Source: Schmidtea nova (taxonomy: Eukaryota). From it: a stretch of 63,672 bases of DNA. The stretch lies in assembly GCA_044892505.1 (NCBI GenBank), contig CM097882.1:179180329-179244000 (forward strand). Reading direction: 5' to 3'. How positions within the stretch are numbered: position 1 is the stretch's first letter; each line of letters begins with the position of its first letter. The notes beneath the pieces are model-generated. The model made no database searches. It saw only the letters and a list, made by a program, of their open reading frames with translations, and had not been told where the DNA came from. Made by a program: the position numbers and the translations under genes. Below, piece after piece: positions 2,676 through 47,805 of the stretch.

Positions 2676-2789
2676 ACTTTGTTCAAAAAAAAATACTTGT
2701 ATGATCCATTATTAGTATAAATGCAGTTAATTAGGTTTTTAAAATGTCATGGAGTAAGTATTTGATTTTTTATAACAATTTATTAATTT

Positions 2790-3131: not shown

Positions 3132-3148
3132 ATAAATGTATTGTAAAA

Positions 3149-3478
3149 ATGTGTTACTTTATTAATATTTCTTGTCATAAAAATGTTATTAAAGAATTAT
3201 GTATAATTAATTCAAATATTATTTTGGAACCATTACTTACAAGATACTTTTGTTCAACATTTTTATTGAAAGTACTTGATGTTTCTCAAATATTTTATGC
3301 GCCTAATGAATGGAAAATCAGAATATTGAAGAAATATTTTCCAACTCTTCGATTAATACCATATTCAATAAAGAATAACATTTTTCCAACGAATATAACA
3401 TGTCTCTATGGTGAACATTTTAATTGTTTGTACAAACTTTGTCTATTATGTGTTGTTGATTATTTAACTATTAAATAA
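3149..3478 (+). CDS. Putative Polinton accessory ORF (109 aa), function unknown
   Basis: Open ORF right after the protease. The VIKELCI N-terminus and C-terminal C-x4-H-x2-C resemble small accessory proteins of invertebrate Polintons (recollection, not searched). Confidence 0.45.
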   Translation: MCYFINISCHKNVIKELCIINSNIILEPLLTRYFCSTFLLKVLDVSQIFYAPNEWKIRILKKYFPTLRLIPYSIKNNIFPTNITCLYGEHFNCLYKLCLLCVVDYLTIK

Positions 3479-4476: not shown

Positions 4477-4836
4477 TTAATAGTCCACTTCGATATTCTT
4501 TTGTATGATTTCGATTTGACTCATATTCAAAACTCTCGGTTGAACCCATTTTACCATCAATTTCTCATTGACTTCATCGGCATCGGCTTCAACAGGTTTC
4601 GTTGTTGCTGCTGTCTTGACTACTTGACGAAATGCTTTCTTTTCTTCCTCGGAGAACGATTTTATATGATTAAACCATCTTAAAGCATAGAAATAGCAGT
4701 CTTTAATTGACGAACATGCTTGAAACACTTCAACATCAGCAGTAAATTGATAATATCCATTAACATGGTTTTCATTGAACATATAATTGTTCAATTTTAA
4801 TTGACCGATATCGATTTTTAGATTACCAAATTCCAT
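4477..4836 (-). CDS. Orphan 119-aa ORF of unknown function, probably element-borne
   Basis: Intronless ORF with protein-like composition. Its upstream region shares the ACAGACGCGAG motif with the region above the orphan ORF at 46785-47375. Confidence 0.4.
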   Translation of the reverse strand: MEFGNLKIDIGQLKLNNYMFNENHVNGYYQFTADVEVFQACSSIKDCYFYALRWFNHIKSFSEEEKKAFRQVVKTAATTKPVEADADEVNEKLMVKWVQPRVLNMSQIEIIQKNIEVDY

Positions 4837-5177
4837 ATTTTCAAATTTAAATCAAATTAAGAATTTTCAATTCCACAAAATTTTTATTAATCCAATTGAT
4901 TTAGATAAACAAAAAACAAATCGTCCAAAATTAGTTTTTATCCAAAAAAATCCAATCAAAAGAAATTAAACTACAAATTCAAATCAACTCCAATTAAATT
5001 CTAAAAATCAATCGATAAAACAAAAAGAATTAAAAATCCGTCAAAATTAATTCTAATAATCAAAAGGCATTTTTAAATCAATTTTGTCCCAACCAATCCA
5101 AGAACTCGCACACAGACGCGAGCACCCTCACCAAAGAACACACATCAAGCCTCCAAAACCGCACAGCACTCACCACA

Positions 5178-5671: not shown

Positions 5672-6199
5672 TCATATTTTTTGGACTTTCTTAGCCAATT
5701 CTAATGGAAAAATTTTTACAATTGGTCTGGTTTTCTCTTTACCTTGACATTCAACCTTAACGACTCTGACCTTTCCATCACTACCTGGAATCAGTTCCTT
5801 AATTCTTGCTAACGGCCATCGACCTTCTAAAATATTCGGTTCTAAAACCCAAACAACGTCACCTACTTTGACATCTCCGTTTTCTTTCCACCATTTTTGT
5901 CTTGTACCCCACATTGGTACGAGTTCTTTCTGCCACCTTTCCCGAAAATGGTTCACTATCTCCAAAATTCTTTTCCATCTTCTTCGGTAATCTACTCTTT
6001 CATTAGGGGGGATATCTTCTGTTCGATCCAGTCCAGGCCATTTTGATAAAATAAAGTCATTTGGAGTTAGTGCAATATCCTCTTTGCCGTCACTGCATTG
6101 CACTGTCAAAGGGCGAGAATTCAACAAGCCTTCTACTTTTATTAACACTGTATTCAGTTCTTCATCCGAAATGTCAGCTTCCCCAATAATTATCTTCAT
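5672..6199 (-). mobile_element. BEL/Pao retrotransposon integrase C-terminus (DUF5641-like), 5'-truncated
   Basis: VEGLLNSRPLT, ALTPNDF, RRWKRILEIVNHFRERWQKE, VKVGDVVWV, WPLARIKELIPGSDGKVRVVKV, RPIVKIFPLE are typical BEL/Pao motifs. Confidence 0.93.
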
Positions 6200-6419
6200 A
6201 GCTTTCTTCGCTATCGATTGACGAGGATTATTTGATAATCGAAAATTTTCTCACTTAATAAAATTATTATTTTTGCAGCAAACGCTTATTTTGTTACTTA
6301 TTTATTAATTAATATAATACTTAATGCTGCTACCAAGGAATCACCATTTTATAATAATAATAATAATAATAATTTTTTTGGCATGCAATCCAAGTGCAAT
6401 ACAAATGCAATACAAATGC

Positions 6420-8708: not shown

Positions 8709-9372
8709 TTAAAAAATAAACCTAATAATCCAAAATTAATAAACCAAAATTTATTAATTAAAGTTTGGTTTATTTATTTTACACCACATTGATTGGTTTG
8801 GGGGCATTTTTCTATTCAGGAAGGGCATTGCCCCCAAATGCCCCCATGGCGCTGGGCTTGATTTTATGTAAAATTATTAAATTAACAATTAATTATAAAT
8901 ATGTTCAAACTATAGTTAATTATGAATATATAAACAACACAAAATTTTCTTCGTTCATTGTAAAGGTTGCTTTGGGTTGTAACACGGGCATAAAAATTAA
9001 TAAATAATTTTAATCACTTAATAATACTAAATTACAGTGAAAATAATATATAAGAAGCTTGTATTGTTATAAAAATTTCAAAATTTCTAGTTAATATGTT
9101 AAATCGTATTCGGTATATAAATCTGAAATATTTTTTTAGGTTTTTAAATGCCAAAATTGTTGATTAAATTTTGTTACATATGCATTATATAAAAGCGGCA
9201 ATGTCAAATTTATGCTTCATTTAATTTTTAAATAACATTCTTAAATTTACCGAGAAAGTTTAATAGATATAAAAGATCCGCTTGTAATATTTTAACGAAG
9301 TCTAATTAAAAATTAGTAAATACATAAATGTACTTACCTAAATCATATATATATATATATTTTTTTTTTATT

Positions 9373-9612
9373 TCAATAATTCCTATAATGATGACTATAG
9401 ATCAAAATTTTTTTTATAAACAATAACACAATATTTCGGCACAGCCTTTATCAAGTGTGTATTTCAAATGTGTTTGAAATACACAATTGATAAAGGCTGT
9501 GCCGAAATATTGTGTTATTGTTTATAAAAAAATTTTGATCTATAGTCATCATTATGGGAATTATTGATAATAATAATAAAAAAGATCAAAGGTGAAAAAA
9601 GATAATTATGAT
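9373..9612. mobile_element. Palindromic Penelope-derived mini-element (copy 1) with two inverted hammerhead-like motifs
   Basis: Near-perfect ~195-bp palindrome at 9373-9567 plus a one-sided tail (aaagatcaaaggtgaaaaaagataattatgat). The same sequence recurs at 47805, 58616, 20017 and 60995. Confidence 0.85.
9426..9458 (-). ncRNA. Minimal type I hammerhead-like ribozyme motif, U3-A8 core variant
   Basis: ACAC-UUGAUAAA-GGC(UGU)GCC-GAAA-UAU-U-GUGU: stem I 4 bp, stem II 3 bp, palindromic stem III, NUH triplet AUU. Confidence 0.65.
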
Positions 9613-9730
9613 CATATATATATATATATATATATAATTTTATTTATTATTATTATATATTATATTAATTGTCAATAAGCGAAATTCTTTAAAATAACAA
9701 TTTTAAAAAGTTATTTACTTGAAAAGGTAA

Positions 9731-10113
9731 TGTGCTGGGTTCATGGAGGGGTTAGATGAAAAGTTCTAACGAGGGCTAGGGATTCCCCATCCATGATCAT
9801 ACATAAATATTCGTAAATTCACACTCGAGCGCCCTTGATTATTTCCCTTTATAACCAAGTTGGTGATGCGCAAGGTGGTTAAACAATGATGGGCAGGTGA
9901 GCTCTATCGCTAGAACTACTCCTCATTTATGTTTACGGGTTCATCGTTGCCGTTAGAAGGACTTACGCTTTAGTCGCGAATGAGTTTAGTTGTGGTCCTC
10001 CACAGTCTTTATTATTTACTTTCACAACACTTACGTAACGTTTTATTTATTTATATACGAATACTAGTGTATTTATGAAGGAATTATTTGAATAAAACTA
10101 AATGCTGGTTACA
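9731..10113 (+). mobile_element. LTR-like repeat copy A (383 bp, TG...CA)
   Basis: Starts TGTGCTGGG and ends AATAAAACTAAATGCTGGTTACA. Colinear motif matches to 27026-27413 and partly to 14832-15090. Confidence 0.55.
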
Positions 10114-10254
10114 CTTAAGATGTTCCATTTATTCGACTAATTAGTAAACTTTTATATTAAGACATAACAAAAATGTCAGCACGAATGATATTCTATTTTA
10201 TTATTATTACAACATATGGCTAAAAATCCCCTCTGGAGGGAAAACCTCGGTCAG

Positions 10255-10770
10255 CAGGTCTCCTTCCGATAATTTAGTTAACTCGTCGACCTGATCTTGT
10301 AGTGTTTGCGCGAAGTTTCCTCTGCCTCCTTCGCTTCTGGCCGATTCGCTTGCGTTTGTGGTGCGTGCTGATGGAGGGAGCACTCACAATAACTGGTTGA
10401 GATTCTTTTTCCGTAGTTTCGGTTAGACTTTCGATATCAGTGCTGATTGAGATTACTGACTTTTTCTCGGTGATTCACCTCTGATAGGCCGTCACTGAGT
10501 GGAGGCATTTTCGCAACTCAATCTTGGTTTCCTCCCACTCCATTTTGTAGTCTTCTGCTGTTCTCTGAGCCCACTTGGTTTTGCCGATTTGATCCTTCAT
10601 CCGCGCAGGAGCAAACCAACTCTGTGCCTCTGCTTTGGCCAATTGCTCTTTCGTTTGAGCCAATTCCTTGTTCTGAGCTCTTCGGATTCTCCATAGTTGG
10701 TGTATTTCCTTTTGGTGTTGTAGCGATTCTGTCTACAATCGTGATGAAGTAAAATTCACCCACTTTAATT
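10255..10770 (-). pseudogene. Coiled-coil ORF with basic C-tail (cassette A), disrupted
   Basis: QKEIHQLWRIRRAQNKELAQTKEQLAKAEAQ...EDYKMEWEETKIELRKCLHSV...HKRKRIGQKRRRQRKLR, with in-frame stops. Confidence 0.55.
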
Positions 10771-10884
10771 ATAATTTAAAATTAGTTATTTATTCAACAT
10801 ACAAAAATCAACTTCAATAAGTAAATTAGATTTAATAGAACTTTTATTGCTAATACACATTGTTTCAACATTAATGTTTATTCT

Positions 10885-11397
10885 CTACAACCGAAATAAA
10901 ATGTGGATCTCCTGATTTATTGCCGCTCGACGTAGCCTCGCTAATGAGAAATTTGGTTGAATGGTATTACATTCCTTCCCGAATGATCGTGGTGGGACAA
11001 ATGCGTGGAGTCCTAATTTGTGGAGCTCGTCTCGGGGAATGTGTCCCCAATATATCACTTGTCTGGGCTTCCCGTCGGCATCTCTTATAATAATTAATAG
11101 TCGTCCGAACTTCAGAGAATAGGTTTGATTAGATTATGGCCATCTAGGGCCACCCCAATATAGAATGAGATTGTTGTCATCAGCTCAAATAGAAAATGGG
11201 CACTTCCTTCCGAAGTCTCGACGCCATTTATACGTGAGCGCATTTATTGTTCGCACGATTGGCGAGGGTAATTCTTTTAGCTTTCTGGCCTTGTTTTCTG
11301 TTTTCCTTGCCTCCGATGACCGTCTACACTCGGCTATCATTCGGATTATTGTTTCCTCAGACATCTGTGTTATGTCAAAATATAATTTATGATTCAC
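10885..11397 (-). pseudogene. Uncharacterised ~170-aa Trp-rich protein (cassette A), two in-frame stops
   Basis: Read through the stops: MNHK...KLKELPSPI...KWRRDFGRKCPFSI*ADDNNLILYWGGPRWP*...IIRDADGKPRQVIYWGHIPRDELHKLGLHAFVPPRSF. Homologous to 25248-25754. Confidence 0.7.
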
Positions 11398-11426
11398 CTC
11401 CTCAATAAAAAAACTAATTTACTGAG

Positions 11427-11618
11427 TATCTCCGTCGTGATGTACCATGATCGGAATAATTTATACGTTTAATTTATTTAATTATCCCTGCGCTATGTAC
11501 AGCGATCAGGGTAGATACGAATAAAAGTTTTAGATAAGTTCCTGCGCTATTTACAGCGATCAGGATAACAATATAAAATTTCGAATTGATTCCTACGCTG
11601 TCTAGAGCGATCGGGAAT
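11427..11618. repeat. Array of four related bulged hairpins
   Basis: Hairpins at 11427-11458, 11483-11513, 11540-11565 and 11589-11618, each with a 6-nt loop and a similar 3'-side bulge. Confidence 0.75.
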
Positions 11619-14600
11619 GTTAGTTATGGATCAGTTTGAGTGTCATGCAGTTTATCGTAATTTCGTTTATGTTAAAGTGTCGACTGGTCGATTTAGTTGA
11701 TGGATAAATTTCCAATCGAATTTTCGTACGACTAGTTAAGGACTTTGACCCTAATTCATTCTACAATTCGCATTGTCGTATTGGAAAAAATTTGGACTTT
11801 TCATTAACAACTCGCCTATCTCTTGGGGTAATAACTAGCCTATTCCGCAAATATATTGGGTAGAAGGTACCTTGGGCCTTCGGGATGCCCCTTGCCGCAT
11901 GGCAGCCCTCCATGTAACACACTTCATCTTTGCCGACCCATCTTATGTGCAACAACAAAAATCTAAAATTATCATCGTGAATTCATCCACTGTGATCATT
12001 CTAATCATCTAATTTATATCAATTCATAAAAAAGGTGGAACCGCCGTGAGAAACCGTTAAGCTCCACGACGACGACTCTGGCTCCCTCGCCGCGTGAGCA
12101 GTCGAGGAAGCATATCTATGGATGTGAAATATAAAATTATAAATGATAAGCATTAAGGTTCAAAATAACATGAAATTAAAATTTATATGAACAACAAAAT
12201 CATGGGTACATATATGATAATAAAAATAAAAAACCAAAATTTACTGCTCCATACCGATGAAAATGATAACTGTTGCTGATAAGGTTCTCGTAAAAACTGA
12301 TGCTTCGCAAAATACACTCAAAGTTACACTCAGAATTTAATGCTTCACAATGGGCTCTACAAAATTCCTTTAAACAAAATGCTAACTTAGTGATTTTCGG
12401 ATCGGTATTTATACTGATCCGGCTGGTCAGATTGACCAATCAGGATCAGGCCGTCCATTAAAACCTGTCTATTATTTTATTCTATTGTAAATATTATTTT
12501 ATTTCCGGTTCAGGTTTCTCGCTGGGTGGTCCTGATTTTCAAAGTAATTAATCAATTAATTGCACTTTTATTTTGATTTAATTCTTTATTTTCCTGTTTC
12601 AGGCCCCCTTGCTGCTTGTTCTAATGTAAATTTTAAATTTTCTCATTTCTGTTAATTTATTTATTTTTTATTATTTTATTCAGATTTTTAATTCTGATTT
12701 TTCTATGTTTTTTTGTATTTATTATTTTTATTTTTTGTTTTATTGTATTGTTATTTTGGTGGTTTAGACCACTTGGCGGGCCCAACAAATGTTAATGATG
12801 TCAGTCCATCAGATATCTATTTATTTCCATCATTTCTAAATGTTTTTGATCTTATTTTATTTAAATATACCTTAATTTTTGAAAATCCTTTATCCAATTG
12901 CATATATGAATATTTTTATTATAGAATTCACTTGTCATGATTTTGTTGTTTTACTGACTGACGTTTTTACTCTGATATAATTATAAATCGTTCATTGTGA
13001 GTTGTGTTGAAAGGAACTAAATCTACAAGTTTCTACAAGTTTCTTATTTGATAATATGACCTTTGCATTGATCGTGCTAACACCTTATTTATTAATGTTT
13101 TTTGGTAATTGGGATAATTTATTTATAATTATATTTTAGATGAATTTTAATACTAAATAAATGTATGTATCTTATATTTTGTTGTTAAGTCACTTACACT
13201 TCAATGGCGCACATATATTTATTATTTATCGATTTTAATATATTAAAGTTTAATTTCATTTAGACTCATATTGCCTAGTGGTACAGTATTTTTTTCATTG
13301 TATAAAATTTCCTGAATTTTAATACCGGATGTAGCGAATTATTTAATATGTTTATATTTTACAAATCATTTTTGAGTGAAGAAAAGCTATTTTGTCTTAA
13401 TGGCTCAAGATTTAGACATTCTTTCAACAAAAGAAATTCAATGAAATCTAGATTACAGCGATAAATGCATGGTGGAAGCATCATATATTGGAAAATATTC
13501 TAACCAAACGGAACTGAGTTTTTTAAATAAATGTTAAGAAATTTAAATTCTAATTACATTTTCCGCGTTGAAACTAAAAAAGAATTTGTGCACCATACAC
13601 TATCTACCATAACAATTTATAAACATTTTTAAACCAGTTGAAAGTTTTTTCTTGAAAACAAAAAATATATAAAAATTATGAAGAACTTCTAGAATTTTTT
13701 AAAATTGAGTAATGTTATCAAAAATTAAAGGACTAAATTTACTAAATAGTAATAAAGGTGCTTTTGGGTTATCTTACCTCCTTATATTTAGTAGGCATAA
13801 AAACAATATTCAACAATTTAGCAACAAAAAAACAGTTAACATCTTAAAAGTTCACTTTCTGACATATATCATGTCATCAATAATAAAAATTAATTTATGA
13901 CATCAATAATTTATCTCAAGAAAAACTACCCCCCAAACAAACATGAATTTATTAGAATTAGCTAGTGTAATAGATGATAAATAAACTAGTGTTCGGTTTC
14001 TTCAGAGACACGGCCTACTTCATAATCAAAGAGTATGCAGCAATGGTCATGCAATGCAGCAATTGGGATAAGATAACCCAAAAGCACCCTAATAAATTCA
14101 TATTTTGTTAAACTCCCATGAGTTGATGGAAGTTTTTTTGTCTTGATATTTGCTTTTTTATTAGATATCAATAAATTAAATTTTTAATATTAATATTGAA
14201 AACATCCGAATATCACATTGATTTACATGTGTTTTGCCATGAGCAAGTGAATTATTTATATTATATTTTTTGAAAACTCATGCATCAAAATTTACAATCT
14301 GTCGGTGTTAATCTCCTTTTTCATGTAAATTATTATTTATATAAATTTGTATATGTATTAAGTGTTGTACATGTTCAGTATGAAAGGACACAGATCCTGG
14401 GCCTATTATAAAAGGACCATAGATTTGTTCTGAATAATAATGATTAATGAATTTTTGAATATAAATAGCAAAAAAATAATTATGATGACATTATTTTTGA
14501 ATTTTGTGATATTGAAACAAGAAAAGGAAAATATATATATAACTTTTTATAATATTCTTATATAAATATTAATAGCTTAAATTATATAAATTTTAATCAT

Positions 14601-14831
14601 TATATTTATTAAAAATAAGTAAACCTAGTGTGAGTTCAATTAAAATATTATATAAGATATAAGTCCCGTAACCCGTCATAAATGACGAAAGTAAAATAAA
14701 TTCTAGTTGTTTTTCTTTCATTAGACTTTTATTCTGAATTTTAAAAAAATAGGAATCATAAAAAAACTTAATCTTAATTAATATTAAAATAAAAATTAAT
14801 AAAAAATTATATATATATATATATTGGGAAG

Positions 14832-15551
14832 TGTGGGTGTTGTAAGAAAAATTATTATTGCCCCTAAGGATTAATACAACCCATAGCCCATCATAAATAT
14901 TAAACTACCTAAATCGTTTACCCATAGTTATTCCATAGCTAACTATGCTTCTCAAAAAATATACAAATAACCTCTCTTAACCCCCTTTGGTTTCCTCTAC
15001 AACTGTCCTTAATTTGCCTTTTCCCATCACACAAAATTTAACTGTCAGTGAAGTTTAGTTTGTTCTCACCGCGACTTTATAAACCGCGAACTTATGAATG
15101 GCAACTGCACATTCTTTAATCCTCCGTATGGTTTTCTTGAATTAATTTTAGCTGCGTCTGGAGTATGACTGTGAGTGGATATCTTTATTATGTTTTCATC
15201 TTCTATGTGACATCAAGCTCGACATTTCGGCATATCATATTCATTACATCTCCAGATTGTATTTGTTGTAATAGTTTTTTCTTTTAGAATTGTAAAACCA
15301 TCTACTACGAAGAGATTTCCATTTTTGCAACATTTTACATATTCTAGGCATTTTAGTGGTAACTGATATTTTAAAAAATATACCATATTAAATATACTGG
15401 ACTACATGACGTTAATTATAAAGGACAGTCGAAGTTATATAATACTTTAAATTAAAATTAACAAACCACAACGTTGCATTAAAATCAATTTAATCTAATT
15501 TAAATTGATGTCAATTAAAAAAAGGGTTATATACCAGTTTTGGGTGGTACA
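14832..15551 (+). mobile_element. LTR-like repeat copy C, interrupted by a MULE FLYWCH fragment
   Basis: 14832-15090 aligns by eye with 27413-27150 (catagtt.gc...gggta.acga...tgggttgta.taatcc.tag.g.caataataatttt). Ends GGTGGTACA like copy B. Confidence 0.45.
15100..15386 (-). pseudogene. FLYWCH zinc-finger fragment of a MULE/Mutator transposase
   Basis: GNLFVVDGFTILKEKTITTNTIWRCNEYDMPKCRA*CHIEDENIIKISTHSHTPD; the internal TGA is probably from CGA. Confidence 0.75.
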
Positions 15552-15554
15552 AAA

Positions 15555-15758
15555 TAATTAATTAATTAATTTAATATTTTAATATTTTAATAATTTATTT
15601 ATTTAATTAATATAGAATAATTAATCAAACGGAATATTAAAAGAAATGAAAATAATTAATTAATTAATTTAATATTTTAATATTTTAATAATTTATTTAT
15701 TTAATTAATATAGAATAATTAATCAAACGGAATATTAAAAGAAATGAAAATAATTAAT
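15555..15758. repeat. 98-bp tandem duplication
   Basis: Two near-identical AT-rich copies containing tagaataattaatcaaacggaatattaaaagaaatgaaaat. Confidence 0.85.
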
Positions 15759-16083
15759 CAATTGAATTTATTAAGGCCAGCCTAAGGAGATTAAAGCGTT
15801 CAGATCTTGATTTAATTCCAAAATTATTTTCAAATTCGAATAATTTTATTTTTTCGCAAATATCTTCAAACCTGGAATTTTTAGGGAGAAAGCTTCTTAA
15901 TGATCTCCATTTTCTTTCCATAGTATTCGTGTGGATTGAAATCTCGTCAATTTTAACAAAGGTCACAGAATGATTAACACTGTAATGAATATACCCAAAA
16001 TCTTTCAATCTGTTATATCCGCGCCCTTTGTCGGTACATATTGTGGCGTTTTGTTCAACAGACTGTAAAATAAACTGAGTCAA
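15754..16083 (-). mobile_element. Merlin (IS1595/ISXO2-like) transposase C-terminal fragment
   Basis: ICTDKGRGYNRL..FGYIHYSVNHSVTFV....IHTNTMERKWRSLR matches the TD..Y / H..VNHS..FV / HTN.IE..W pattern. Confidence 0.85.
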
Positions 16084-16202
16084 TACTTGGATAAAACTTG
16101 GATATTATAAATAATAACAATGGCGCACGTTTATGATCGATACTATTATTAACAGCTCACGGTTTTCAGTGCGTGATATAGAGCGCACGCTTATTGAAGT
16201 AA

Positions 16203-16244
<42 letters not shown>

Positions 16245-16247
<3 letters not shown>

Positions 16248-17360
16248 TCCCATCTTAGCCATCTTCTACATGAACTTTATAGAATCTAAGATCATATCTT
16301 TTTTTGAGAACAAAATACTTTTCTGGAAACGATACATCGACAACATCTTCATAGTCTCCACAATTCCTCTCAATCAAATCCTATCACACGCAAATTCTAC
16401 TAACACCAACATACAATTCACTTTTGAAACACCGAACACAGAAGGTAAAATACCGTTTTTAGATACCATGGTAAGTTTTACAAAAGGCCAAGATACACTA
16501 AATGCAAACACCGAGCTATATTCTAAAGGTTTACATAGTAGTCATATCCTCCCATGGAAAAGCCACGTTCCACTTCAACGCAAAATCGCATTACTAATAG
16601 GAGAAAGAAAAAGATCCATAAGAAACTGTTCAGGCGCAAACAAAATACAAGAAACATTAGAAAACTTCAAAATACGATTCCTCCAAAATGGATACCCTGA
16701 AGAATTTGTAAAGAAATACTTCCTTAACGAACCATACTACAATAAACGCAACAATAGGAAACGCCAGAAACACAATAACAATAACAAACACACAACATAT
16801 TTAAGATAACATTTCCTAAATGACACTACAGCCAACAAAATCACCAACATTTTTAATCAAACAGATTTGCCTATCCACATCTGTCCAACGTTCATAACCT
16901 CTGCACCGTTAAAATCACAACTCCGAAAGCCACCAATTTCCAACATCTCCAAACATAAATGTCTTTGCCGTTCCACAACCCGATGCTTTTGCTTTTCCAA
17001 AAATATAGTATATAAACTTTCTTGCCAAAAATGTGACGCTACTTACATAGGAGAAACACATAGAACTTTTCGCACCCGACTTAATGAACACACTAAAAAC
17101 AAAACTAGTAGTTATTACGAACACTGGAGAAAGTACATAAAACAACTCCATCTATAGAAGAAACAAATTCCAGATTCTACAAGAGGAATTCAAAATTTCA
17201 TTACAAAAATTAGCTTCCGAGACTTTTTACATAAAAAAATACAAACCATCCATCAACATTCAATTCGCACGAAAAAATTAAAATAAATTTTTTTCATCCA
17301 ATAAAATCATTATAAAATATAAAAAAATAATTAAGGTTACTATGTAGGATTAAGTTAATA
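16245..17360 (+). mobile_element. Penelope-like element 1 (RT C-terminus plus GIY-YIG endonuclease), 5'-truncated; its 3' end resumes at 20002 after a Tigger insertion
   Basis: WKRYIDNIF, GKIPFLDTMV, KWKSH-like SHVPLQRKI, LQNGYP, then KNIVYKLSCQKCDATYIGETHRTFRTRLNEH. Begins at a (TA)n tract. Confidence 0.92.
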
Positions 17361-19999
17361 CATGTGAACTCGTTTAATATCACCTCGGTTATTATCACGA
17401 CCTGTTTAATATCACTAAAACTCAAAATCCACTTGCCAAACATTATTAATCAATACATTTTTACTCGGTTAATATCATCTTGCATAATATCCATTTCCCG
17501 CTTATTATCATTTATTATAATCACTTATTATATTTTTTTATTTTGATATTTCAAATTCACTTAATATCGTGATTTTTTATGAATTTTTTTATAATCTTTT
17601 TTACCAAAGTTCACACAAAATAAGTTTAAAAAATTTAAAACTGAAACTTCAAATATAATTTAAATTTCCTATATTTTGTAACTGTTTTCTTATATTTCTT
17701 ATAAAAACAAACTTATTGCACAACAAAAACGCAAGATGGTGATAGAAAACCGTGAAAATCATATTTAAACAATTTTCCTATTTCGTTTTTCAAATCTTTT
17801 ATAAAACGCATTTATTTGCACATAAATACATATATTGAATGTACTCATCCAAAATGTAACAGGTGAGCATTTAAAAAGTAAACACACCTAAAATTGATGA
17901 TAATGCGCAGTTGGTTAATAACATTAGATGCAGTTCTGTCAATATATATTTTACCTAATAAAGTATGTTTTTATCTAATAAAGGTTTTGAAATACATATC
18001 TAATCAGAAACTTGATAATTTTAATTTAAAATACATATATTTATTGTAAGCAAGCAAAATCTACAGGGTTTTGATATAAACAGAGGTAAATTTTAATAAG
18101 TTTTCTTAATTTACTTGAGATTAAAGTGATTGTTGTTTTAATACACATGTATGTAATTTATAATTTCTTACAAGGGCTAAATCAAAAATGACAGAACGTA
18201 AACGAACAGAATTAACTGTAAAACAAAAATTGGATATTAGAGCAGCTTGTGATGGACCACTAAAACAAACGTATGCAGCTGTTGGTAAGAAATTCAACAT
18301 TGATTCATCAACAGTGAGCAAAATTTATAAAAACAAAAGTGCATTATCTGATGTTGTAAACTTAAACAGCAATAGAAAAAGAAAACGGCATAGCAGAGCT
18401 GAATATGTAGATAAAGCATTGTATAACTAACATTAGCATCAGCGGTGAAATACTGCGTGTCAAAGCTGAAGCCTTTGCTAGAGATCTATCCGTAATAAAT
18501 TTTGTGGCCAATAATGGATGGTTAGATAGATGGAAGAAAAGATTTGGAATCGTATATAAAAAAGCACATGGGAAAAAGTTGATGCAGATGTTCCTGCAGC
18601 AGAAGAATGGTTATCTACAACCTTGGTCGATGTATTCCGCCTCTATCAAACAAAAGATATTTACAACGCGGACAAAACTGGCCTTTTGTGGCGTGCAATG
18701 CCGAATGGTTCACATGTCTTTAAAGCAACTGAACTTTCTGTAAAGTATCAAAAGAAAGAGTTACTATTTTACTTTGTGCCAGTATGGATGGTGAGAAGCA
18801 ACTAGTTTTAGTAATTGGCAAATCTGAAACACCGCGTTGCTTTCGAGGTGTTAGACAGTTACCTGTAAACTATAAAAATAATTTAAATACCTGTATGACG
18901 TCCTCTATATTCGAAGAATGGCTACGTCAATGGGATAAAGAACTGTATTCTCAAAGTCGGAAGATTCCTTTAGTCTTAGACAATTGCTCTGCGCATCCAA
19001 AGTTAAAATTTAATAACATCGAATTAATTTTCCTCCCACCCAATGTAACATCACTAGCTCAACCGTGTGATCAAGGTATTATCCGCAATTTTAAGTTCCA
19101 TTATCGTCGATTACTTGTATTGAAATTACTAGCAGCAATTGAATCTTCCACTGCTCAAATACAAGCTGGGCAAATAGTAAAAAACTTAATCCATTGGATG
19201 CGGATCTTTAATAAAAGAAGCACGGAACAAGGTTACCAGCATAACTGTACAAAATTGTTTCAAAAAGACAAACTTTTGTAATAATGCTCCAGATTTAATT
19301 GAAAGTGACGAACTTGCTTTGAATATAAATGAACTTGATTTTGATTTTAATGAATATTTGGAAATGGATATCAATGAAGAATGTTCAGAACCTTTGAATG
19401 ATCAAATGATAGTGGAATCCATCGTGGAACAAAAAAAGCAAAATAAAAATAATAATGTGGCAAGTGATGATAGCGACGATGAAACAGAATCAACTGCAAC
19501 AACTATAACCAACAATATTGCTTTAGAATCTTTTAAAAATATACAAATGTTTTTAACAAATAACAATGCTGCAGATGGGACTGTTTAAATCAGTTGGATA
19601 ATATAGTTCAGCACACTATATTAAAAAATGCAACCAAAACATGTCAATTAACATTAGAAAAATGGTTCAAATAAATTTCCGAGCGTATATATGTATAATA
19701 TACATTGTATATGTATAAATAAATAAATGAATTATTACTAGTCAATATATTGGATGTATATTAAAAATAAATAAATTATTACTTAGTAGTCAATATAATG
19801 TCTTTTTTTCATAAATAAATACATAAATAAATTCTCTATTGAAATAAAATTTCGGTTATTGTCATGAATAATGATAATAATCGAGTTGTCGGTTAATGTC
19901 ACGTATGTGGATATTAAGCGAGTTTCGGTTATTATCACGACCCGCTTAATATCATGATTTTTTTGGAACCGTAAGCATGATATTAAGCGGGTTCGCCTG
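17361..19999 (+). mobile_element. Tigger/pogo DNA transposon (2639 bp) with decayed CENP-B/DDE_1 transposase (18188-~19590)
   Basis: TA TSDs at 17359-60 and 20000-01. TIRs catgtgaactcgtttaatatca vs rc caggcgaacccgcttaatatca. Fragments RTELTVKQKLDI, ANNGWLDRWKKRFGI, IYNADKTGL, LVLDNCSAH, FLPPNVTSLAQPCDQGII. Confidence 0.93.
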
Positions 20000-20001
20000 T
20001 A

Positions 20002-20075
20002 TAACGATTGAATTACATACTTGATAAAGGCTGTGCCGAAATATTGTGTTGTTTATAAAAAAATTTTGATCTATA
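20002..20075 (+). mobile_element. 3' end of Penelope-like element 1 with a hammerhead-like motif (20017-20049)
   Basis: AUAC-UUGAUAAA-GGC(UGU)GCC-GAAA-UAUU-GUGU followed by gtttataaaaaaattttgatctata, near-identical to one arm of the palindromic family. Confidence 0.75.
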
Positions 20076-21937
20076 TATATATATATGTGTGTGTGAATGT
20101 ATTGCAAATAATAATTTGACCATAATATTGAAGGCAAATATTAAAAATATATTTTAATGAATGGTAAAATGAATTAAAAATTTAAAAATGTAACAATAAT
20201 TGAAAAAATATTTTTTCGAAATTAGTCGTATAACTTCATTTTAACAGTAAATATTATAATAAATCTCAATCTCTACCAAAATATTTGACATTCAACTGGT
20301 TCAAATAAAATGTTTTATAATTACTGGCAAAATTACAAAATTAATATATAAATTTAATTAAATAAGTAATTATTGATGAATTAATTTACCTAGGATAGCA
20401 TTCATTTGAGATGGAGATATTTCAGGGTTCTTTTCTAAAAATTCCATATATTAAACTATAATATTTCATTATTATACTATATAGCTTAACAAAAGTATTC
20501 AAGAAAATATTATAATTAATATTCAATTGGTCAAAATTAATGTCGAATTATTCAGTAAAAGATGGTTTTTAATAGCCTTAATAAATGTCCTTATAATCGT
20601 AAAATTGTGATTTAAAGGTGTAATTTAAAATAATTCAACTATATTTTTTCACTTATTATTTTTAGTTTACTGAGATTCGAAAATGATTGCACAATTATGA
20701 TTTTTTTTAAATGGTAATAATGCGTTGGAAAATAAGCAGTTACTTAAAAAGAGAGCTCAAGAATACTATAAAAACACAAATCTAAGAGAAAAGACTGTTT
20801 TTTTCTGAAATTGTTAATAAATATATACAATTTAATTTAATAAACAGTTTTTAAAAAATCATAAGGGATTTTATTTATTTATTTTGGATTCAAACGACAA
20901 AATACTCGTTTATATATTAGAAAATTTAAAAAATCAAATTAGATACATTTGTGGTATACTAAAACGAAGAAGAAATTAGAAAAATTTCTTAGTGAAGCGG
21001 AATTTTGAATAAAACATGAAAGTATCGAAATTTATTATTTTGAATAATGCATGTAAATGTGTATTTTAAATTCGAATTTAATTGAAAATTCCCGGTGCAT
21101 CAGTGAACATTTAACATGCTCCATTTTGGCCCATTCCGTCGCTATATTGTTTTAAAAACGATTCGTCAAATTTATGTTTGCACATATCAACCGTTATACA
21201 GTGAAAATATCTCTTGATTTAACATTAACTTTTTTTTCAAAATTTATGATACAATAATCAAATTACAAATGATTAAAACTATCAGAAAATACCAAATTTT
21301 ACAACTTGTTCAATATCGGTTATTGAAAATATTGAATATCAGCATAAAATTTAAACCGAAACACAAAAATTCACGTGGTTATTAGTTTGAGGAAAAAAAG
21401 GAAAGATAGAAATTCCGATCGATTTTAATGAATCCGATTCAATCATTGAAACTAATTTGATTGGCTGAATTTTTAATCATGTTAATAACGCACTTTTACA
21501 CACATTTACATTCTACAAGTATACAAGCACTCAACAAATGCAACATTTTAAAGTCTAATTTATTCTAGAAATAATTTGTATGAAATTTTAAAACTACATT
21601 ACATATTTTCGTAGTAAATTTTCCCAATACAAACATCTGTGCGAATGTTGGCATAAATATGAAGCTGAAAGTCGTTTCGAAAAGCACACAGACCGTCATG
21701 TTTAGGACAACACACAGTTTATATGCACATTGAGACAACCTATTGAAGAAAATCACACAACCTGGACATTTAAAAAATTATATTTATCGATGAATATTTT
21801 TCATAAATGTTTATTTCGTAAATAAATTTTCTCAACCAAAGTAAGAAAATTATTTTATTTTTATTTTTTATTAAATTTTTAATAAAATCGATTTAAATCA
21901 ATATTTTCGAAAAAAAGGGAATTCTGTTTTTTTTCAA

Positions 21938-22141
21938 ATGTCAACTCCGCAAATCTGTGCCAAATGCTGTAAACCATTTACAGCTGGACCTATTCTTTCA
22001 GCTCTGGATAAAAAATGGCATCCTTCTTGTTTTGTCTGTGTCAATTGTAAAGGCGAATTAGCTCGGTCTTCGTTTCATGTGAAAGATGATTCTCCATACT
22101 GCGTTAATTGTTGGAAACAACTCTACCAACCCAGATGCACG
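21938..22141 (+). CDS. Two-LIM-domain protein, exon 1 (68 codons)
   Basis: MSTPQICAKC...KKWHPSCFVCVNC...PYCVNCWKQLYQPRCT is a complete LIM domain. GT donor at 22142, phase 0. Confidence 0.93.
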
Positions 22142-22851
22142 GTATTTATTTATTTATAATATATAATCGATGCAAATAAAATTATGCGTTTAATATTAAT
22201 ATGCATTTTCAAATTGAAACAATAAAAAAAATTTCAATTTTGAGAGCATTTTCAAAATACAAATTTTTTATTTTGTTTGAGTTTCTATTTAAACTTTAAT
22301 TGCAAGATTTTATTTTCAATTTTATTATATTTTTTTGTAAATTCAATGAGAAAATATTTTTTAAAAAATCATCAATAAACATATTTTTTAAGAAACTTTT
22401 TTATCTTCCTCACCGTTAATCTTTGTTCGATTTCATATGATTTCAGTTTTTAGACAAAAGATTAAAAAAATTTTCATTTTGTTCAAAACTAATTTTCAGC
22501 TGTCGAAAATTTGAGATAATAATTTTGATTTATTGTCAAAAAAAATAAAAATACATATTTTTATTAATAACATTTTTTTTTATTAAAATCCAAAATTTAT
22601 TTAACATATACTTAAAATAAATAAAATTCGGCGTGTTGGAAAATGTAGCACAATGTACCTAAGGGTTCCAATGAATTTGGATACATTAGATAAAAACGTT
22701 AAGGTTAAAACAACAACTTTTTTTTTGAAAAAAATAACATATGCGAGCCATATGTCAATTTCATTTCGATGATTCCAGGATTATTTTTTATAGAAAATTC
22801 CTAATTATTTTTATAGCACATTCTAAGTTATAATTGATTGTTTACTTTCAG

Positions 22852-23010
22852 GGTTGTCATACTATAATTGAACCAGAAGAGCAATATGTAACCTACAATG
22901 ATAATGCATATCACAAACAATGTTTCACTTGTGCTAACTGCAAACAAACTTTGGCTGGAAAACAATTTGTTATTCAAGATGACAAATTCTTGTGTCCAGA
23001 GCATGTGTAA
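22852..23010 (+). CDS. Two-LIM-domain protein, exon 2 (total 120 aa)
   Basis: Acceptor tttactttcag, phase 0. GCHTIIEPEEQYVTYNDNAYHKQCFTCANCKQTLAGKQFVIQDDKFLCPEHV* completes LIM2. Confidence 0.92.
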   Translation, partial: GCHTIIEPEEQYVTYNDNAYHKQCFTCANCKQTLAGKQFVIQDDKFLCPEHV

Positions 23011-23817
23011 AATGGAATTCATTTCCAATCGAATATAGAATAAACAAAATGATAAATAATTAAGCAATTATTAATTGTAAAATTTACTATAGATTTTTAG
23101 TGCTTTTATTATTATAATAATTTATCATTTGTTTTAAAATGACTTATGATGTGATTTAATGGATTTGGTTGTTTTAATTTAATTAGAACTTTTAAAATAT
23201 ATTGAAAAATTTCTTCAAATTTTATTTTGATTTAAATCTTTTACTTAAATGGCAATTTAGAATTATCCTCGCAATTTGTTTTCACTCTATAACTCGCAGA
23301 TCACCCAGAAGTGGTGAAACGTCATTATATTACCGCCGCGAAGGACTATATAGAAATTAAAACAAACTCAAGAAAAAGCACTATCACGACAACAAGGGGA
23401 ACATTCACACATTCGTAACTAATAATGTTCAGCGGTTGAACCGTAACAATATTGGATTATATCCACAGCCTAACGTGAAATTGAACCGAGGGCAAATGAA
23501 ATTCCACCCAAACGTAAAAAGTAAGGATTGAATGTTTCAGGAGAAACTTAACAAAACAAGCGAAAATAATCGGACGATTGCTCCCAATAAAGAAAATAAC
23601 TTGTTGGGCTGATAAGACCAAAATTTACAATAGAAATCAGCAGAAAATCGGCACAATAAAGTTAAATAATGAGAAATAATTAAATTGAATAAAAATAAGG
23701 AACAAATTTACATAGCAAATTTATAGGAAAAAGTAAAGGAATTATTAATAGTAGAATAAATTACTGTGGAAGGAAGTAGTATTAAAAATATAGTGTTAGT
23801 GTTCGGGTAGTGAAAAT

Positions 23818-24370
23818 CTAGTCAGGTTCATATCTAGGGTGCTGTAGAACACCTTCATAAATTAACTTACCACGATCATGTACCCGTGAAAACTCTAGAT
23901 TCGTTTCACATTGGGATTGTAAATGTCGGCGCGAGCCAAGTGGACACGTGAGCGACATTGGGGTAACTACTCTCACTTCTTCACTTACTTTTACTCCCAC
24001 ATGGTCTATTTTTATATCTTCTAAAGCTTCTTCCAACGTTTTTGGCTCTCTGATCTTCAAGGCTACCGAGAGAGTTTGGTTTCTCACACCTTCTATAAAG
24101 GCATGTATCATCATTTGTTCTTTTTCTCCTTCGTAACTTAGGCATCACATTCTTACTCTTTTCGAAATCTACTACATTCTCATCTCTTTCGTATCTGGTG
24201 TAGTTGAGAATATCTACAGTTATTGAGGTCTTTAATCTTTTAACCTCTACGATTTTGAGAATCAGTTCTTCGTATAGTTCTGGTTGTGATAATGTCTCCT
24301 AAGCATTCAATCTCTTTTACGATTTCTTCGTCAAAGTATTTTAAAAATACTTTAATTTTCTCTTCATTCG
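23818..24370 (-). pseudogene. Gypsy-type Gag (capsid) fragment
   Basis: NEEKIKVFLKYFDEEIVKEIEC...MMIHAFIEGVRNQTLSVALKIREPKTLEEALEDIK fits the FI.G...P.TL.EA Gag motif; frameshifted. Confidence 0.65.
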
Positions 24371-24960
24371 TTACCAAGTTGTGTTAGGGACTATTTCATT
24401 CAATAAATCGGAGTCGTATAGACCGGAAAGATGGTTCGTCTGTAATCTCAGATGTTGGGCAAATGCGCAACGTTTCCTTCGGCGCCCAGAGCCTATGTGG
24501 TTTTTGAGGATTGGAGTCGTGGTGTTCACAACACTGGGTATATTGACTTTTTCCTCGCTTATCTCGTCCGGCGCGTGACTCTCTGATTTATGAACGACTC
24601 TCGCCCATTTTCCAAAAGTGATGGGCTTAATCTCGGGCTTCAAATACTTTTTGATATAGGTTTTAAAACCTGATTCAGGCACCTTTTTAATTCAAACCAC
24701 ACATCATCTAGTTCTAACTGCACGTCAACGAGAGCTAGTTGGCCTCTCTCGGTTTTCTTTAACTGGGACTGCATTTGCGCTAGAGAGAAATAATTTGTCT
24801 GTAACCTGTCGATCTCTCTTGCTTGTCGAGCTATTCTAGCTTTGAGATTCGCCACTTACTGATACGCGATTCTTCGTTTTTCCCGTCGTCTTTTCTTTTC
24901 TAATGTGGAACAAATCTTGTGGGTCGAATTATTATTACAAGATACAAAATTGGATCAACA
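24371..24960 (-). pseudogene. Coiled-coil ORF with basic C-tail (cassette B), disrupted
   Basis: ANLKARIARQAREIDRLQ...VDVQLELDDVWFELKRCLNQV...NHIGSGRRRKRC, homologous to 10255-10770. Confidence 0.55.
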
Positions 24961-25247
24961 GTAATTAGTATAGTTATCAGGCGGGAATTCGCGGAGGTTG
25001 CAATGCTCGAATAACGTAATTACTCCTATATCTATACGAATGGTGTATGCGTTTGATTCTGATTTAGTCAAAAAGGAAAATATTAATACCCATATGCATT
25101 TGCTTTCGAATTAAACATTCGAAATGATCAAGAAAACTAGAAACCAAAACAAATACAGTTTAAAATAGAAAACATTTTATTCCTAATAACAAGGTTAATT
25201 TCATCGTCTGGTCTAAAGTTTACTCTGATCGTAATTGAGAAAACTTC

Positions 25248-25754
25248 TTAGATGGCTATTGCTGATCTCCATTCCGAATTCGATGTCTTTGAATCCAAGT
25301 TCAGTGATACTGGATGTTGATGGATCCACTTCGAATTTGACTGTCGAAATCGTGGATGAACTAGCAGTGCCAAACACAAGCTGTTGAATTCCCACCAGGG
25401 AATACAGCCAGAGTATAAGATCCATTTAGGTCTGTTCTTATCGTCTTTGTGCATGATAAACCACGTGGAGTTTTCAATGGAGACTTCGCGATCTTCTTCG
25501 AAAGGCCACTGGGGACCACCGCGCCACCATATTTCCTCTTAGGGATCAAGATCCCATATCGAAAAAGGAGCTCTGACCCGAAATTCGGTCCTCCGATAGC
25601 GCATCGCCGTGTCAACATTTTGTGAGATCTTGTGAGGCAGAGGCTTGAGAGACTTACAGATCTGCCATCAATATTCTGAATCTTGTCGAGCTGCTGCTAT
25701 ATCTGGAATGTTCACATTCTCACTTTCCACTAGTGAATTAGTATTATTTTCCAT
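25248..25754 (-). pseudogene. Uncharacterised ~170-aa Trp-rich protein (cassette B), two in-frame stops
   Basis: MENN...IAAARQDSEY*WQICKSLKPLPHKI...RYRRTEFRVRAPFSIWDLDP*EEIWWRGGPQWPF...DKNRPKWILYSGCIPWWEFNSLCLALLVHPRF. Confidence 0.7.
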
Positions 25755-27025
25755 TTTTAAATCTAAAATTGGTATAGAAAGATTTGCAATTTGGATGCTT
25801 GATTTACAATTATTTATGTGATTGGGTAACTCGCACTATGTGAATGACTTCAAACTCCTGATATTTTTTGATGCGTTGCTGTATTAAGCAGACACAATGT
25901 AGCGAGTAGATACTAGTCGGTCAATTAGATGTGTTTTTATGTGATCTCGCATTTGTATTTCGAGGTTGTTGACCATGCTAGATTTGCAGTCGTCGCAGAA
26001 TTTCATTAGAATGATTTCGATCGGCAGTAGTCGAGCGATTAATATTTCTTCCATTAAAAATGATTATACTTCTCTCGTAAGTTGAATTTATAAAAGAATT
26101 TATTATAAAATATTACCAGAATTTGAGTTAGTAAACGTGTTGATTCAATGATATTATACGAACATTTGTCATTTAATCATTATATTCGCTTGGTCAACTA
26201 TTAGATTTAATAACCCTGCGAAAGTCTCGGTGGAGGGCACTATCGTTATATATTCCCAAATAACTTTAACTCTGAACGCTGATAAATTTTGGGTTCACTA
26301 TGTCACTCGAACTTTATTATGGAATGATATGACGGGGTTTTCGAGAGTGCTGTGATGACTGGTTATGAGATGGCTGTCATACAATGTTACCTAAACTGCT
26401 GTCATTGGGTTCTAAGTTTTACTGCCCTATGTGATTTATTGAAAATGCATCTCTGCCTAATACTTGAATATCTCTATGTCAAGTATTTCGCTTGATGTTT
26501 CGGAAGTTTTTTTGCAACCGTTTCATGTGCAATCCCTCCATTTCCTGATAACCATTCGGTTGAGTTTAGTTTCTTTCCTCACCACGCCCGCATAACCCCG
26601 AGGGTCACAACAGTACGGCTATCAACCTTGTGGCCATGAACCACTAAGGCTTCTTGTCTATGATTGGATTTAAGGAGCATTAAAAATGATATGAGGGTTT
26701 ATCCGCAGAATATTAAAATAATGAATAACTATAATGTAGTTTCAAATCACCTTTATTGTCCAAGTATTGAAATAGTGTCAAAATTCACAATTACACGTTA
26801 ATTGACAAATATTGAAATGACACTAGATAAGACTAGATTCAATTATGCTTTATTTTGTGTAATTTCAATTAGATGATTTCATATTTTGCATAATCAATAT
26901 TTGAAAAATCATTATTCTTTTTGCTCGTTCAAATGATTCCCGATTAAACTAATTTTGGGAGGTGAATACGCCACGAGTTCTCAATCGGTTAAAAATGCTT
27001 GGGACGCATTGTCGGTTATAATTTT

Positions 27026-27413
27026 TGTACCACTGTCTTATTAAATTATATAAAATGGCGAGGGAGAAGTAAAAATTGAAGGATGATTATATAGATGTTT
27101 TTAAGAATAAATAAGTGTAGATCTGAAATAGGAAAGGTGATAGAAAGCTAGACAATAATCACACGAAAGGACCATAAAATAGATATGTGTGTAAGTCATT
27201 CTATCGGCAGCAGGAACCCAAAAGAGAGGATAGAGTAAGGAGTAGTTTTGGTAACAAAACTCGTCTACTAACTACTAACCACCGTGTAGAGTACCAACAT
27301 AGTTTGCGAAGGAGCAACTGCGGGTACACGAGTGAGGCATTTTAACATTTATGATATGGTGTGGGTTGTAGTAATCCCTAGAGACCAATAATAATTTTGT
27401 ACCAGCCCATACA
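27026..27413 (-). mobile_element. LTR-like repeat copy B (388 bp, TG...CA)
   Basis: Minus strand TGTATGGGC...GACAGTGGTACA. Shares ggacca, gtaagtc.ttcta.cggca, aggagtagtt, taaccacc, accaac and aatccctag in order with copy A. Confidence 0.55.
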
Positions 27414-28151
27414 CGTCAAGAAATTAATAAAATACAAAATAAATTAGAAAACATTTAAATCAACGAAACGATAAATAAAAGCTAATTGGTTAGTAAATAA
27501 TATAATAAAACTCACCGATTGCGGTAGACAAACTATTTTAATTGGCTAGCTCAATTACCAAATAGGTATATAAAGAGCTAGCCAAAACAGTTAATTTAGC
27601 ATTATTATATTCGAGAATCTTTGTTTTTTAACTAATCATAATGGTTTGATTGAACTGCACACAATTGTGTATATTGGAACAATCGAATAATGTAATTTTA
27701 ATTCTCTATTTTTAATTTGGATATTAGTTTCGGTAAACTCTCATTTCTTTTTCTCTGCTCAAAAGTAAAAGGTTGTTGAGCTTGGCAACTACCCAGCGAG
27801 GAGAGTGGGAATTACATAGAACATAGAGAGTAGCTTTAAAGTCATTTACTTAAAGGATGACAGGCATTAAACTGGCAATAAGTATAAATAAATTAAAAAA
27901 CGAAATTAGTATTTAATGAATTATATTCAGTCACCAGTGTAGAATTGATTCCACAAAATCGTACGAATTATAAATTACCATACGAGTGTCGAACCGTGAT
28001 ACTACCACCGCAAATTTCTGAATAATAAATAAATTACGAACGGGGAATTTGCATATTCGTTCATCACGTTACTTTACTGTTAATAGTCGTCGTAAGTGTG
28101 ATTTGCATAATTAATTAAAATCAATTATTAATTCAATCGAATAGCGAAACT

Positions 28152-46312: not shown

Positions 46313-46387
<75 letters not shown>

Positions 46388-47738: not shown

Positions 47739-47805
<67 letters not shown>

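Follow-up and report, generated by a model that had tools for sequence, protein, structure and literature searches.

Some LTR retrotransposons, among them Burro-like and plant elements, carry accessory open reading frames (ORFs) 5' of gag (PMC6431247, in excerpt; PMC7264820). The Burro-like element of the planarian Dugesia tigrina carries such an ORF, encoding a MATH_TRAF_C domain, upstream of ORF1, and decayed Burro-like fragments with stops and frameshifts are described from D. japonica (excerpt of PMC6431247). In plants, the extra ORFs of Ty3/Gypsy elements, namely those of Ogre (PMC6431247, in excerpt), ORF0 of Retrosat2 (PMC3485330, in excerpt) and the aORFs of Grande, RIRE2 and Retand (PMC7264820), are conserved across diverged families without database relatives, and nuclear or regulatory roles have been proposed for them (excerpts of PMC6431247, PMC3485330 and PMC7264820). 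Extra genes also occur in LTR elements of other invertebrates, such as ORF3 of bdelloid rotifers, which lies 3' of pol and encodes Env, a GDSL esterase or a DEDDy exonuclease (excerpt of PMC5408684). Accessory ORFs of LTR retrotransposons are thus known as a class but poorly understood, and the literature searched offers few animal cases located 5' of gag.

Here we analyze a protein family, denoted ORF0, that is present in two decayed copies, A and B, in a 63,672-nucleotide stretch of the Schmidtea nova genome (hereafter the window). The locus resembles Burro/GYPSM1 in combining a Gypsy-type Gag, an accessory ORF upstream and decay to fragments, but ORF0 has no match to MATH, BIR, BCL2 or ankyrin domains in Pfam, in contrast to the upstream MATH_TRAF_C protein (excerpt of PMC6431247). 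In the giant Burro elements, an ORF1 polyprotein of 4,900-5,100 aa includes MATH, SUMO-like, BIR, BCL2, env and dUTPase domains after Gag (same excerpt), none of which is found in the frames scanned here; two or three CCHC knuckles follow the capsid, compared to one degenerate knuckle recognized here by eye; and the length exceeds 30 kb, whereas the relics at A and B, compared by description only, span 2-3 kb and lack RT. The first-pass annotation had assigned ORF0 to such a giant, Burro-type element; with no pol, MATH, BIR, BCL2 or env remnant near A or B and no LTR pair in the window, this part of the assignment is not borne out, although the Burro-type domains may have been lost from these relics by deletion. 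The plant ORFs differ from the present case in the host, an animal here, in the organization, here a sense-strand cassette of at least two ORFs, and in that no sequence similarity was detected. ORF0 matches none of the bdelloid ORF3 products in Pfam.

Two diverged copies of an orphan protein family

When in-frame stops are read through, both frames proposed in the first-pass annotation are present (171 codons in A and 169 in B, final stop included; Table 1). The two proteins share 42 identical residues of 128 (BLASTP with X at stops, E 1e-14), with a Smith-Waterman score of 129 that none of 5000 shuffles reaches (mean 28.9, maximum 58); among the 36 frame pairs compared, the antisense shadow of this pair scores 83 and all others at most 35. 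A tblastn search across the whole window recovers the homology (E 2e-10), and there is no further copy in the window besides A and B. The DNA is unalignable, as had been suspected by eye, with a local score of 16 against a shuffle mean of 19, i.e., no better than shuffles. The signature residues listed in the annotation are found in the alignment, and its TGA stop in A lies at the position it gave. Similarity along the whole length holds for a core of ~125 residues (13-137 of A with 11-135 of B) and not for the last ~33 residues; likewise, the label 'Trp-rich' fits B (11 Trp) but not A (4 Trp), and Trp is invariant in only two columns.

The start of ORF0-B is uncertain because the frame continues stop-poor for ~100 codons further upstream (P 0.02). 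No homology was detected between the regions upstream of A and of B, and the stop-depleted ORF 5' of A was ruled out as an ORF0 paralog (z about 0).

Identity between A and B at the three codon positions is 50/53/25% over 118 codons, with pN of 0.48 and saturated pS of 0.92. This conservation of the protein in the face of saturated synonymous sites supports the past purifying selection postulated in the annotation. Stops are depleted, with 2 in 170 codons of A and 2 in 168 of B compared to about 10 expected (P 0.002 each), and neither copy contains an internal frameshift. Both copies are dead, at a similar level of decay, yet separated by saturated divergence; they would represent two long-separated families that inserted independently and then decayed.

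Searches of Pfam and NCBIfam produced no matches, and nothing significant was detected in PHROGs (best E 0.45) or among PDB sequences (best E 0.16). The two-sequence alignment retrieved none of 1,835,955,588 protein representatives at E 0.001, and there were no homologs among 142 candidates of 92-298 aa or 1245 candidates of 299-2000 aa. In bacterial and archaeal genomes, 57 pattern matches yielded no confirmed relative, and a tblastn search of 50,697 phage records with copy B found no match. ORF0 is accordingly an orphan in all protein and profile sets searched, in agreement with the earlier failure to recognize a domain; such an outcome is expected because these sets contain few eukaryotic transposon ORFs. 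Resemblances to F-box, SOCS-box, MATH and BCL2 motifs received no profile support. The literature searched, motifs included, does not describe ORF0, but published Burro/Repbase sequences could include it.

Table 1. Features around the two ORF0 copies (positions in the window)
Feature	Positions	Strand	Remarks
Repeat R1, LTR-like	9730..10214	-	directly 3' of cassette A; starts TGT; short purine run 12 nt before
Second cassette ORF, copy A	10237..10732	-	coiled coil, S/T-rich linker, basic patch, C-terminal helix block; broken by stop and frame change
Spacer A, AT-rich	10733..10884	-	152 nt, 79% AT, three AATAAA
ORF0 copy A	10885..11397	-	~170 aa; conserved core 11361-10987; two internal stops, 11187-11185 (TGA) and 11136-11134
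Stop-depleted ORF 5' of A	11623..11982	-	one stop over 120 codons; no relation to ORF0 or to the sequence upstream of B
Repeat R2, LTR-like	14821..15130	-	60% identical to R1; the repeat near A of the first-pass annotation
Zinc-knuckle-like stretch, degenerate	23925..23966	-	by eye; no Pfam match; CCHC-type neighbors by features
Ty3/Gypsy-like Gag capsid fragment	24010..24383	-	in three frames; 59-79% identical to P0004 residues 52-179
Second cassette ORF, copy B	24386..24897	-	homologous to copy A; broken
Spacer B, AT-rich	24898..25247	-	350 nt, 69% AT, one AATAAA; at most weak similarity to spacer A (z 2.6)
ORF0 copy B	25248..25754	-	~168 aa; conserved core 25724-25350; two internal stops, 25670-25668 and 25541-25539
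In-frame 5' extension of ORF0-B	25755..26054	-	2 stops in 100 codons; no counterpart in A
Repeat R3, LTR-like	27060..27417	+	antisense to cassette B; 62% identical to R1, 69% to R2

A two-gene cassette and an adjoining Gag capsid

As noted in the annotation, both ORF0 copies are located upstream of the same coiled-coil ORF (z 10.9 for the homology, with z 8.1 for the C-terminal block), and this second ORF was under selection as well (pS 0.83, pN 0.43 between A and B). The shared C-terminal block was considered as a capsid helix and rejected as weak (z 3.9 in B, 0.5 in A). In B, a capsid fragment begins 2 nt past the last shared cassette block, on the same strand and with no LTR or UTR in between; it is 5'-truncated, with no counterpart of residues 1-51 of the related protein P0004. 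A feature search grouped a 108-aa piece of this capsid and P0004 with Retrotrans_gag, Ty3_capsid and zf-CCHC clusters (0.86-0.94); the assignment to gag is based on this search and on motif reading, with no Pfam HMM gag match for the capsid pieces or P0004. The whole window contains no intact CCHC pattern, and coding-like sequence stops about 200 nt beyond the B capsid. After cassette A, no capsid was detected (P0004 against the 3' frames, z at most 1.4). Homology of the two 3' flanks was rejected, with z of 4.8 at the protein level but 0.3 for DNA. A scan of 12 minus-strand frames in the surroundings of A and B revealed no pol, MATH, BIR, BCL2 or env remnants; pol (PR-RT-RH-IN), which adjoins neither copy, may have been deleted.

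These observations are compatible with a Ty3/Gypsy-type LTR retrotransposon lineage in which ORF0 served as an accessory gene, occupying the first conserved position of a two-gene cassette 5' of the Gag capsid; we assign this reading a probability of roughly 0.5. The conserved accessory gene postulated by the first-pass annotation is thereby retained for B, which the capsid follows on the same strand, and lacks such a neighbor in A. The order in this lineage would be ORF0, AT-rich spacer, coiled-coil/basic ORF and gag. An internal deletion in B would have removed pol and the beginning of the capsid, which accounts for the capsid lying 2 nt from the cassette without LTR or UTR; another in A would have eliminated gag-pol and joined the cassette to its own 3' LTR-like repeat. 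The cassette and gag probably belonged to one element, although their continuity is not visible and the missing P0004 residues count against it. The family consists of two sequences only.

Predicted properties of ORF0

The invariant blocks are of the aromatic/proline type (W-GGP-x-WP, PFSI and Y-x-G-x-IP). No transmembrane stretch is apparent (best 19-residue hydropathy 0.42 in A and 1.06 in B) and hydropathy reveals no signal peptide plus transmembrane anchor, the hallmark of Env; there is no invariant Cys or His across the alignment, and the pI is 10.2 in A and 6.2 in B. The lack of a transmembrane stretch, of invariant Cys/His and of a shared pI argues against Env, a metal finger and a conserved basic nucleic-acid binder, respectively. 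AlphaFold2 models from the two-sequence alignment are uninformative (pLDDT 35.6 and 44.5), with both following the order helix-helix-strand-[GGPxWP]-hairpin-helix; Foldseek with these low-confidence models found nothing at E 0.001, and in a wide VIA structure search the top score, Z 4.1, fell on the helices at the N terminus.

ORF0 would probably have been a small, soluble alpha+beta protein, translated on its own. It might act as a non-structural adaptor in which the invariant blocks bind a host or element protein; given the accessory-gene assignment, we tentatively suggest that, by analogy with retroviral accessory factors, such an adaptor could help the element to evade or steer host control. 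The invariant residues include D, E, R and Y, so that an enzymatic role is possible. It is doubtful, however attractive, that these relics represent an undescribed flatworm Gypsy-type lineage with a conserved multi-gene 5' cassette of retrovirus-like complexity, in which ORF0 would adopt a new fold and counteract silencing or hijack the host against PIWI/piRNA restraint in planarian stem cells. If ORF0 does modulate the host, it bears on retroelement persistence in stem cells under PIWI control (PMC8532177, in excerpt). Conserved across families with saturated synonymous sites and with no relatives in 1.84 billion representatives, ORF0 marks a gap in protein space and can serve as a concrete query for searches of flatworm genomes, even if interest is limited by a family of two dead members whose function is only proposed.

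Alternative origins of the cassette

Several small unrelated ORFs in series, with gag next to one copy of the two and truncated there, would also befit accessory genes of a DNA-virus-like element, a Maverick/Polinton or another endogenous virus, in which case the gag of B would be a nested insertion brought next to the cassette by a subsequent deletion. Remains of a Maverick-like element, including an adenoviral-type protease, indeed lie at 1.8-3.5 kb of the window (Peptidase_C5, E 8.5e-5), 7 kb from A, with BEL/Pao and other debris in between. We nevertheless consider this origin unlikely: the polymerase, integrase, ATPase and capsid of such an element were not found beside either copy, PHROGs, the phage search and the (poor) fold model gave no viral match, and two events are required where one deletion otherwise suffices.

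Should ORF0 instead be the matrix-like N-terminal part of Gag, linked to the coiled coil and capsid by splicing or recoding, it would not be a free protein. A coiled coil followed by a capsid is a known Gag layout, that of Arc-type Gag, and in both copies the conserved part of the coiled-coil frame lacks an upstream in-frame ATG, and an AG precedes the frame. However, both ORF0 copies end at the same place after the unconserved ~33-residue tail, the spacers differ in length and contain stops and AATAAA (a motif frequent across the window, 3.4 per kb), and no conserved donor site was seen; that no fusion appeared among the 299-2000-aa proteins is weak evidence in the same direction. This makes a Gag part quite improbable.

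We give little credence to the cassette as a 3' accessory unit located where env would be, after pol and before the 3' LTR, with B rearranged. Cassette A does lead straight into a short stretch of purines and then an LTR-like repeat with TGT at its start, and additional ORFs of plant elements are most often of the 3' type (PMC7264820), but no pol remnant was found upstream of either copy, a membrane segment is absent, and capsid rather than an LTR lies downstream of B. In favor of the retrotransposon assignment preferred above, the three R copies in the window are all clustered near the two cassettes, at 9.7-27.4 kb. Counting against that assignment, no LTR pair or primer-binding site was found around the cassettes; R1 and R2 are 60% alike compared to roughly 87-90% predicted for partner LTRs (d 0.05-0.07 from the stop count, upper limit 0.19-0.26), and target-site duplication candidates were at chance level, with none for R1. 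The claim that the same LTR-like repeat lies near both copies holds insofar as a 142-bp repeat is shared (72%), but it is situated 3.4 kb 5' of A in the sense orientation and 1.5 kb 5' of B in the antisense orientation, and is not a positional counterpart because of this inversion. One frame of R looked coding, but its conservation is not codon-periodic; R belongs to no Rfam family, and the folding of 6 strands gave nothing significant (best z -1.4).

If the cassettes were instead dead duplicates of host genes, a pair specific to the lineage, the lack of relatives in any set searched would be natural; this origin is, however, very hard to reconcile with two intronless copies outside the LIM and Smad4 genes, where host genes of the window are split by long introns, with their similar level of death despite saturated divergence, and with the transposon debris in which both are embedded. 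Both cassettes are GC-richer islands (0.40 and 0.38 vs 0.29), a further point for the retrotransposon assignment, in a window of 28.8% GC; planarian genomes are >70% AT (PMC11410931).

ORF0 homology and past selection

The two frames described in the first-pass annotation, here called ORF0, the gene for an orphan protein of about 170 aa, are present at the positions given there (copies A and B in the table), each with two internal stops, and, as a correction, the frame of B continues for about 100 codons upstream. With translations carrying X at the stops, residues 13-137 of A align with residues 11-135 of B (42/128 identities, E 1e-14), and none of 5000 shuffled controls attained the score of 129. 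The similarity, initially described as extending along the full length, holds for this core, whereas the tails are unalignable; the label 'Trp-rich' suits B (11 W) but not A (4 W). A tblastn search across the whole window recovered the A-B match (E 2e-10) and no third copy. At the DNA level, the two copies score 16, below the shuffle mean of 19; 50%, 53% and 25% of the first, second and third codon positions, respectively, are identical, pS is 0.92 vs a pN of 0.48, and stop codons are fewer than expected in both frames (P 0.002 each). The combination of homology, DNA-level dissimilarity, pS above pN and stop depletion indicates that ORF0 is a once-selected protein of which both copies are now dead, bearing out the proposed past purifying selection. 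From two stops per copy, the neutral change since the copies died is estimated at approximately 5-7%, within broad limits; because this is far below the A-B divergence, we infer that A and B are relics of two old families rather than products of local duplication.

The orphan status of ORF0 stands: none of the protein sets, profile libraries and structure libraries searched yielded a relative. The papers searched gave no description of ORF0, which could be recorded in repeat libraries or supplements. AlphaFold models from two-sequence input are of low confidence for both copies, fold searches with them were uninformative, and their agreement is limited to a succession of helix, helix, strand, GGPxWP loop, beta hairpin and helix. 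Neither copy has a membrane segment, their charges are unlike, and they share no invariant Cys or His; the invariant residues, chiefly Pro, Gly, aromatic and aliphatic, suggest that the domain is compact and globular and binds through an aromatic surface, and several invariant acidic and basic residues make an enzymatic role possible.

The cassette and its surroundings

ORF0 is a real, selected orphan family within a two-gene cassette. The second ORF, correctly noted as common to both copies, is homologous between them (coiled coil z 10.9; pS 0.83, pN 0.43) and follows an AT-rich spacer of 152 nt in A and 350 nt in B; it encodes a coiled coil, then a basic patch and a 26-residue C-terminal block (46% identity, z 8.1). 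The shared sequence runs as far as 10237 in A and 24386 in B. Both copies are also preceded, upstream of ORF0, by further stop-depleted, coding-like sequence, that of A being unrelated to that of B.

In B, a Gag-like piece starts 2 nt past the shared sequence and matches, at 59-79% identity, residues 52-179 of P0004, a 192-aa ENA protein that was the sole match (1/172 candidates) in the last homologue search. In a feature search, both fell among Retrotrans_gag, Ty3_capsid and zf-CCHC clusters; Pfam profiles alone recognized neither. No counterpart of P0004 residues 1-51 was found upstream in B, which implies that the cassette-capsid join arose by deletion or recombination. Past the capsid piece lies a degenerate knuckle, identified by eye, and the coding-like sequence stops near 23800.

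No capsid lies 3' of cassette A; its place is taken by R1, one of three LTR-like repeats (R1-R3), which starts directly 3' of the cassette at 10214 with TGT, 12 nt past a short purine run. The repeats are 60-69% identical, non-coding by codon pattern, without an Rfam match or a stable fold, and confined to the region around the two cassettes. No pair among them brackets A or B, and R3 is inverted relative to B. R1 and R2 (146/244 identical, z 2.8) are so dissimilar that they could be partner LTRs only if the upper limit of the age estimate applied.

Origin of the cassette

We put the probability that the cassette and gag belong to one element at about 0.6. In the simplest history, a single Gypsy-type lineage would have had the order LTR, variable ORFs, ORF0, coiled-coil ORF, gag, pol, LTR, and A and B would be deletion derivatives of two diverged families within it. 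Against one element count the presence of gag beside one copy only, its missing start and the lack of a visible LTR pair; the foremost rival, although unlikely, is a cassette of DNA-virus-like origin in which gag is nested. What ORF0 did can only be inferred. Given one element, we favor a separately translated accessory adaptor protein, by analogy: additional ORFs of plant elements have been proposed to play an accessory role like that of retroviral accessory factors (PMC7264820). That ORF0 is instead a spliced Gag N-terminal domain is improbable, and a 3' cassette somewhat more so. Host pseudogenes are the least credible origin of A and B. ORF0 is probably a retrotransposon accessory gene.

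Judged by the polyprotein domains searched for, the proposed membership in Burro, the giant Gypsy-type elements, does not hold, and the link is unproven. According to PMC6431247, the Burro Gag opens a polyprotein of ~4,900 aa with MATH, BIR, BCL2, env and pol; in a relative from D. tigrina, an accessory ORF lies upstream, to which ORF0 is comparable at best.

Genomic setting

The window is AT-rich animal sequence (GC 28.8%), a composition that would fit a triclad flatworm host (PMC11410931). A lies upstream of a LIM gene, and B between it and a Smad gene. Transposon debris includes BEL/Pao (DUF5641), hAT, ISXO2-like, FLYWCH, gypsy RNase H/integrase and Maverick-like sequences.

Features of the window, by position
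Feature	Position	Strand	Remarks
Maverick/Polinton-like remnant	1824-3478	+	adenoviral-type protease (Peptidase_C5); tandem arrays at 1-1255
Orphan ORF	4477-4851	-	open, 124 codons; 3' of BEL/Pao integrase end (DUF5641 at 5672-6250)
Palindromic MITE-like repeat	9357-9671, 19995-20075, 47753-48010, 58502-58830		one truncates region 3' of R1
R1, R2, R3	9730-10214, 14821-15130, 27060-27417	-, -, +	diverged copies; conserved ~100-nt 3' part
ORF0, A	11397-10885	-	
Upstream of ORF0-A	11623-11982	-	NUMOD1 match weak and sub-threshold (E 0.006)
FLYWCH (MULE-like) fragment	15100-15398	-	
ISXO2-like transposase fragment	15754-16104	-	
Penelope-related element	16198-17157		related to that at 44111-46324
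LIM gene	21875-23007	+	host; small, two LIM domains
ORF0, B	25754-25248	-	
Upstream of ORF0-B	25755-26700	-	
hAT transposase	30372-32132	+	open, 586 codons; Spin-doc zinc finger; apparently young
Smad gene	33077-60889	+	host; MH1 and MH2 exons; 28 kb; transposon-filled introns
Penelope-like element	44111-46324		RT and GIY-YIG-like pieces; long inverted duplicated ends
Orphan frame	46785-47222	-	145 codons; within Penelope region

By its motifs, the Smad gene is probably Smad4-like. The ORFs of the Maverick/Polinton-like remnant, which have no Pfam match, are presumably capsid-like. The 124-codon ORF, without a Pfam or NCBIfam match, may be misassembled because it sits beside a gap in the assembly that carries a 66-bp inverted duplication.
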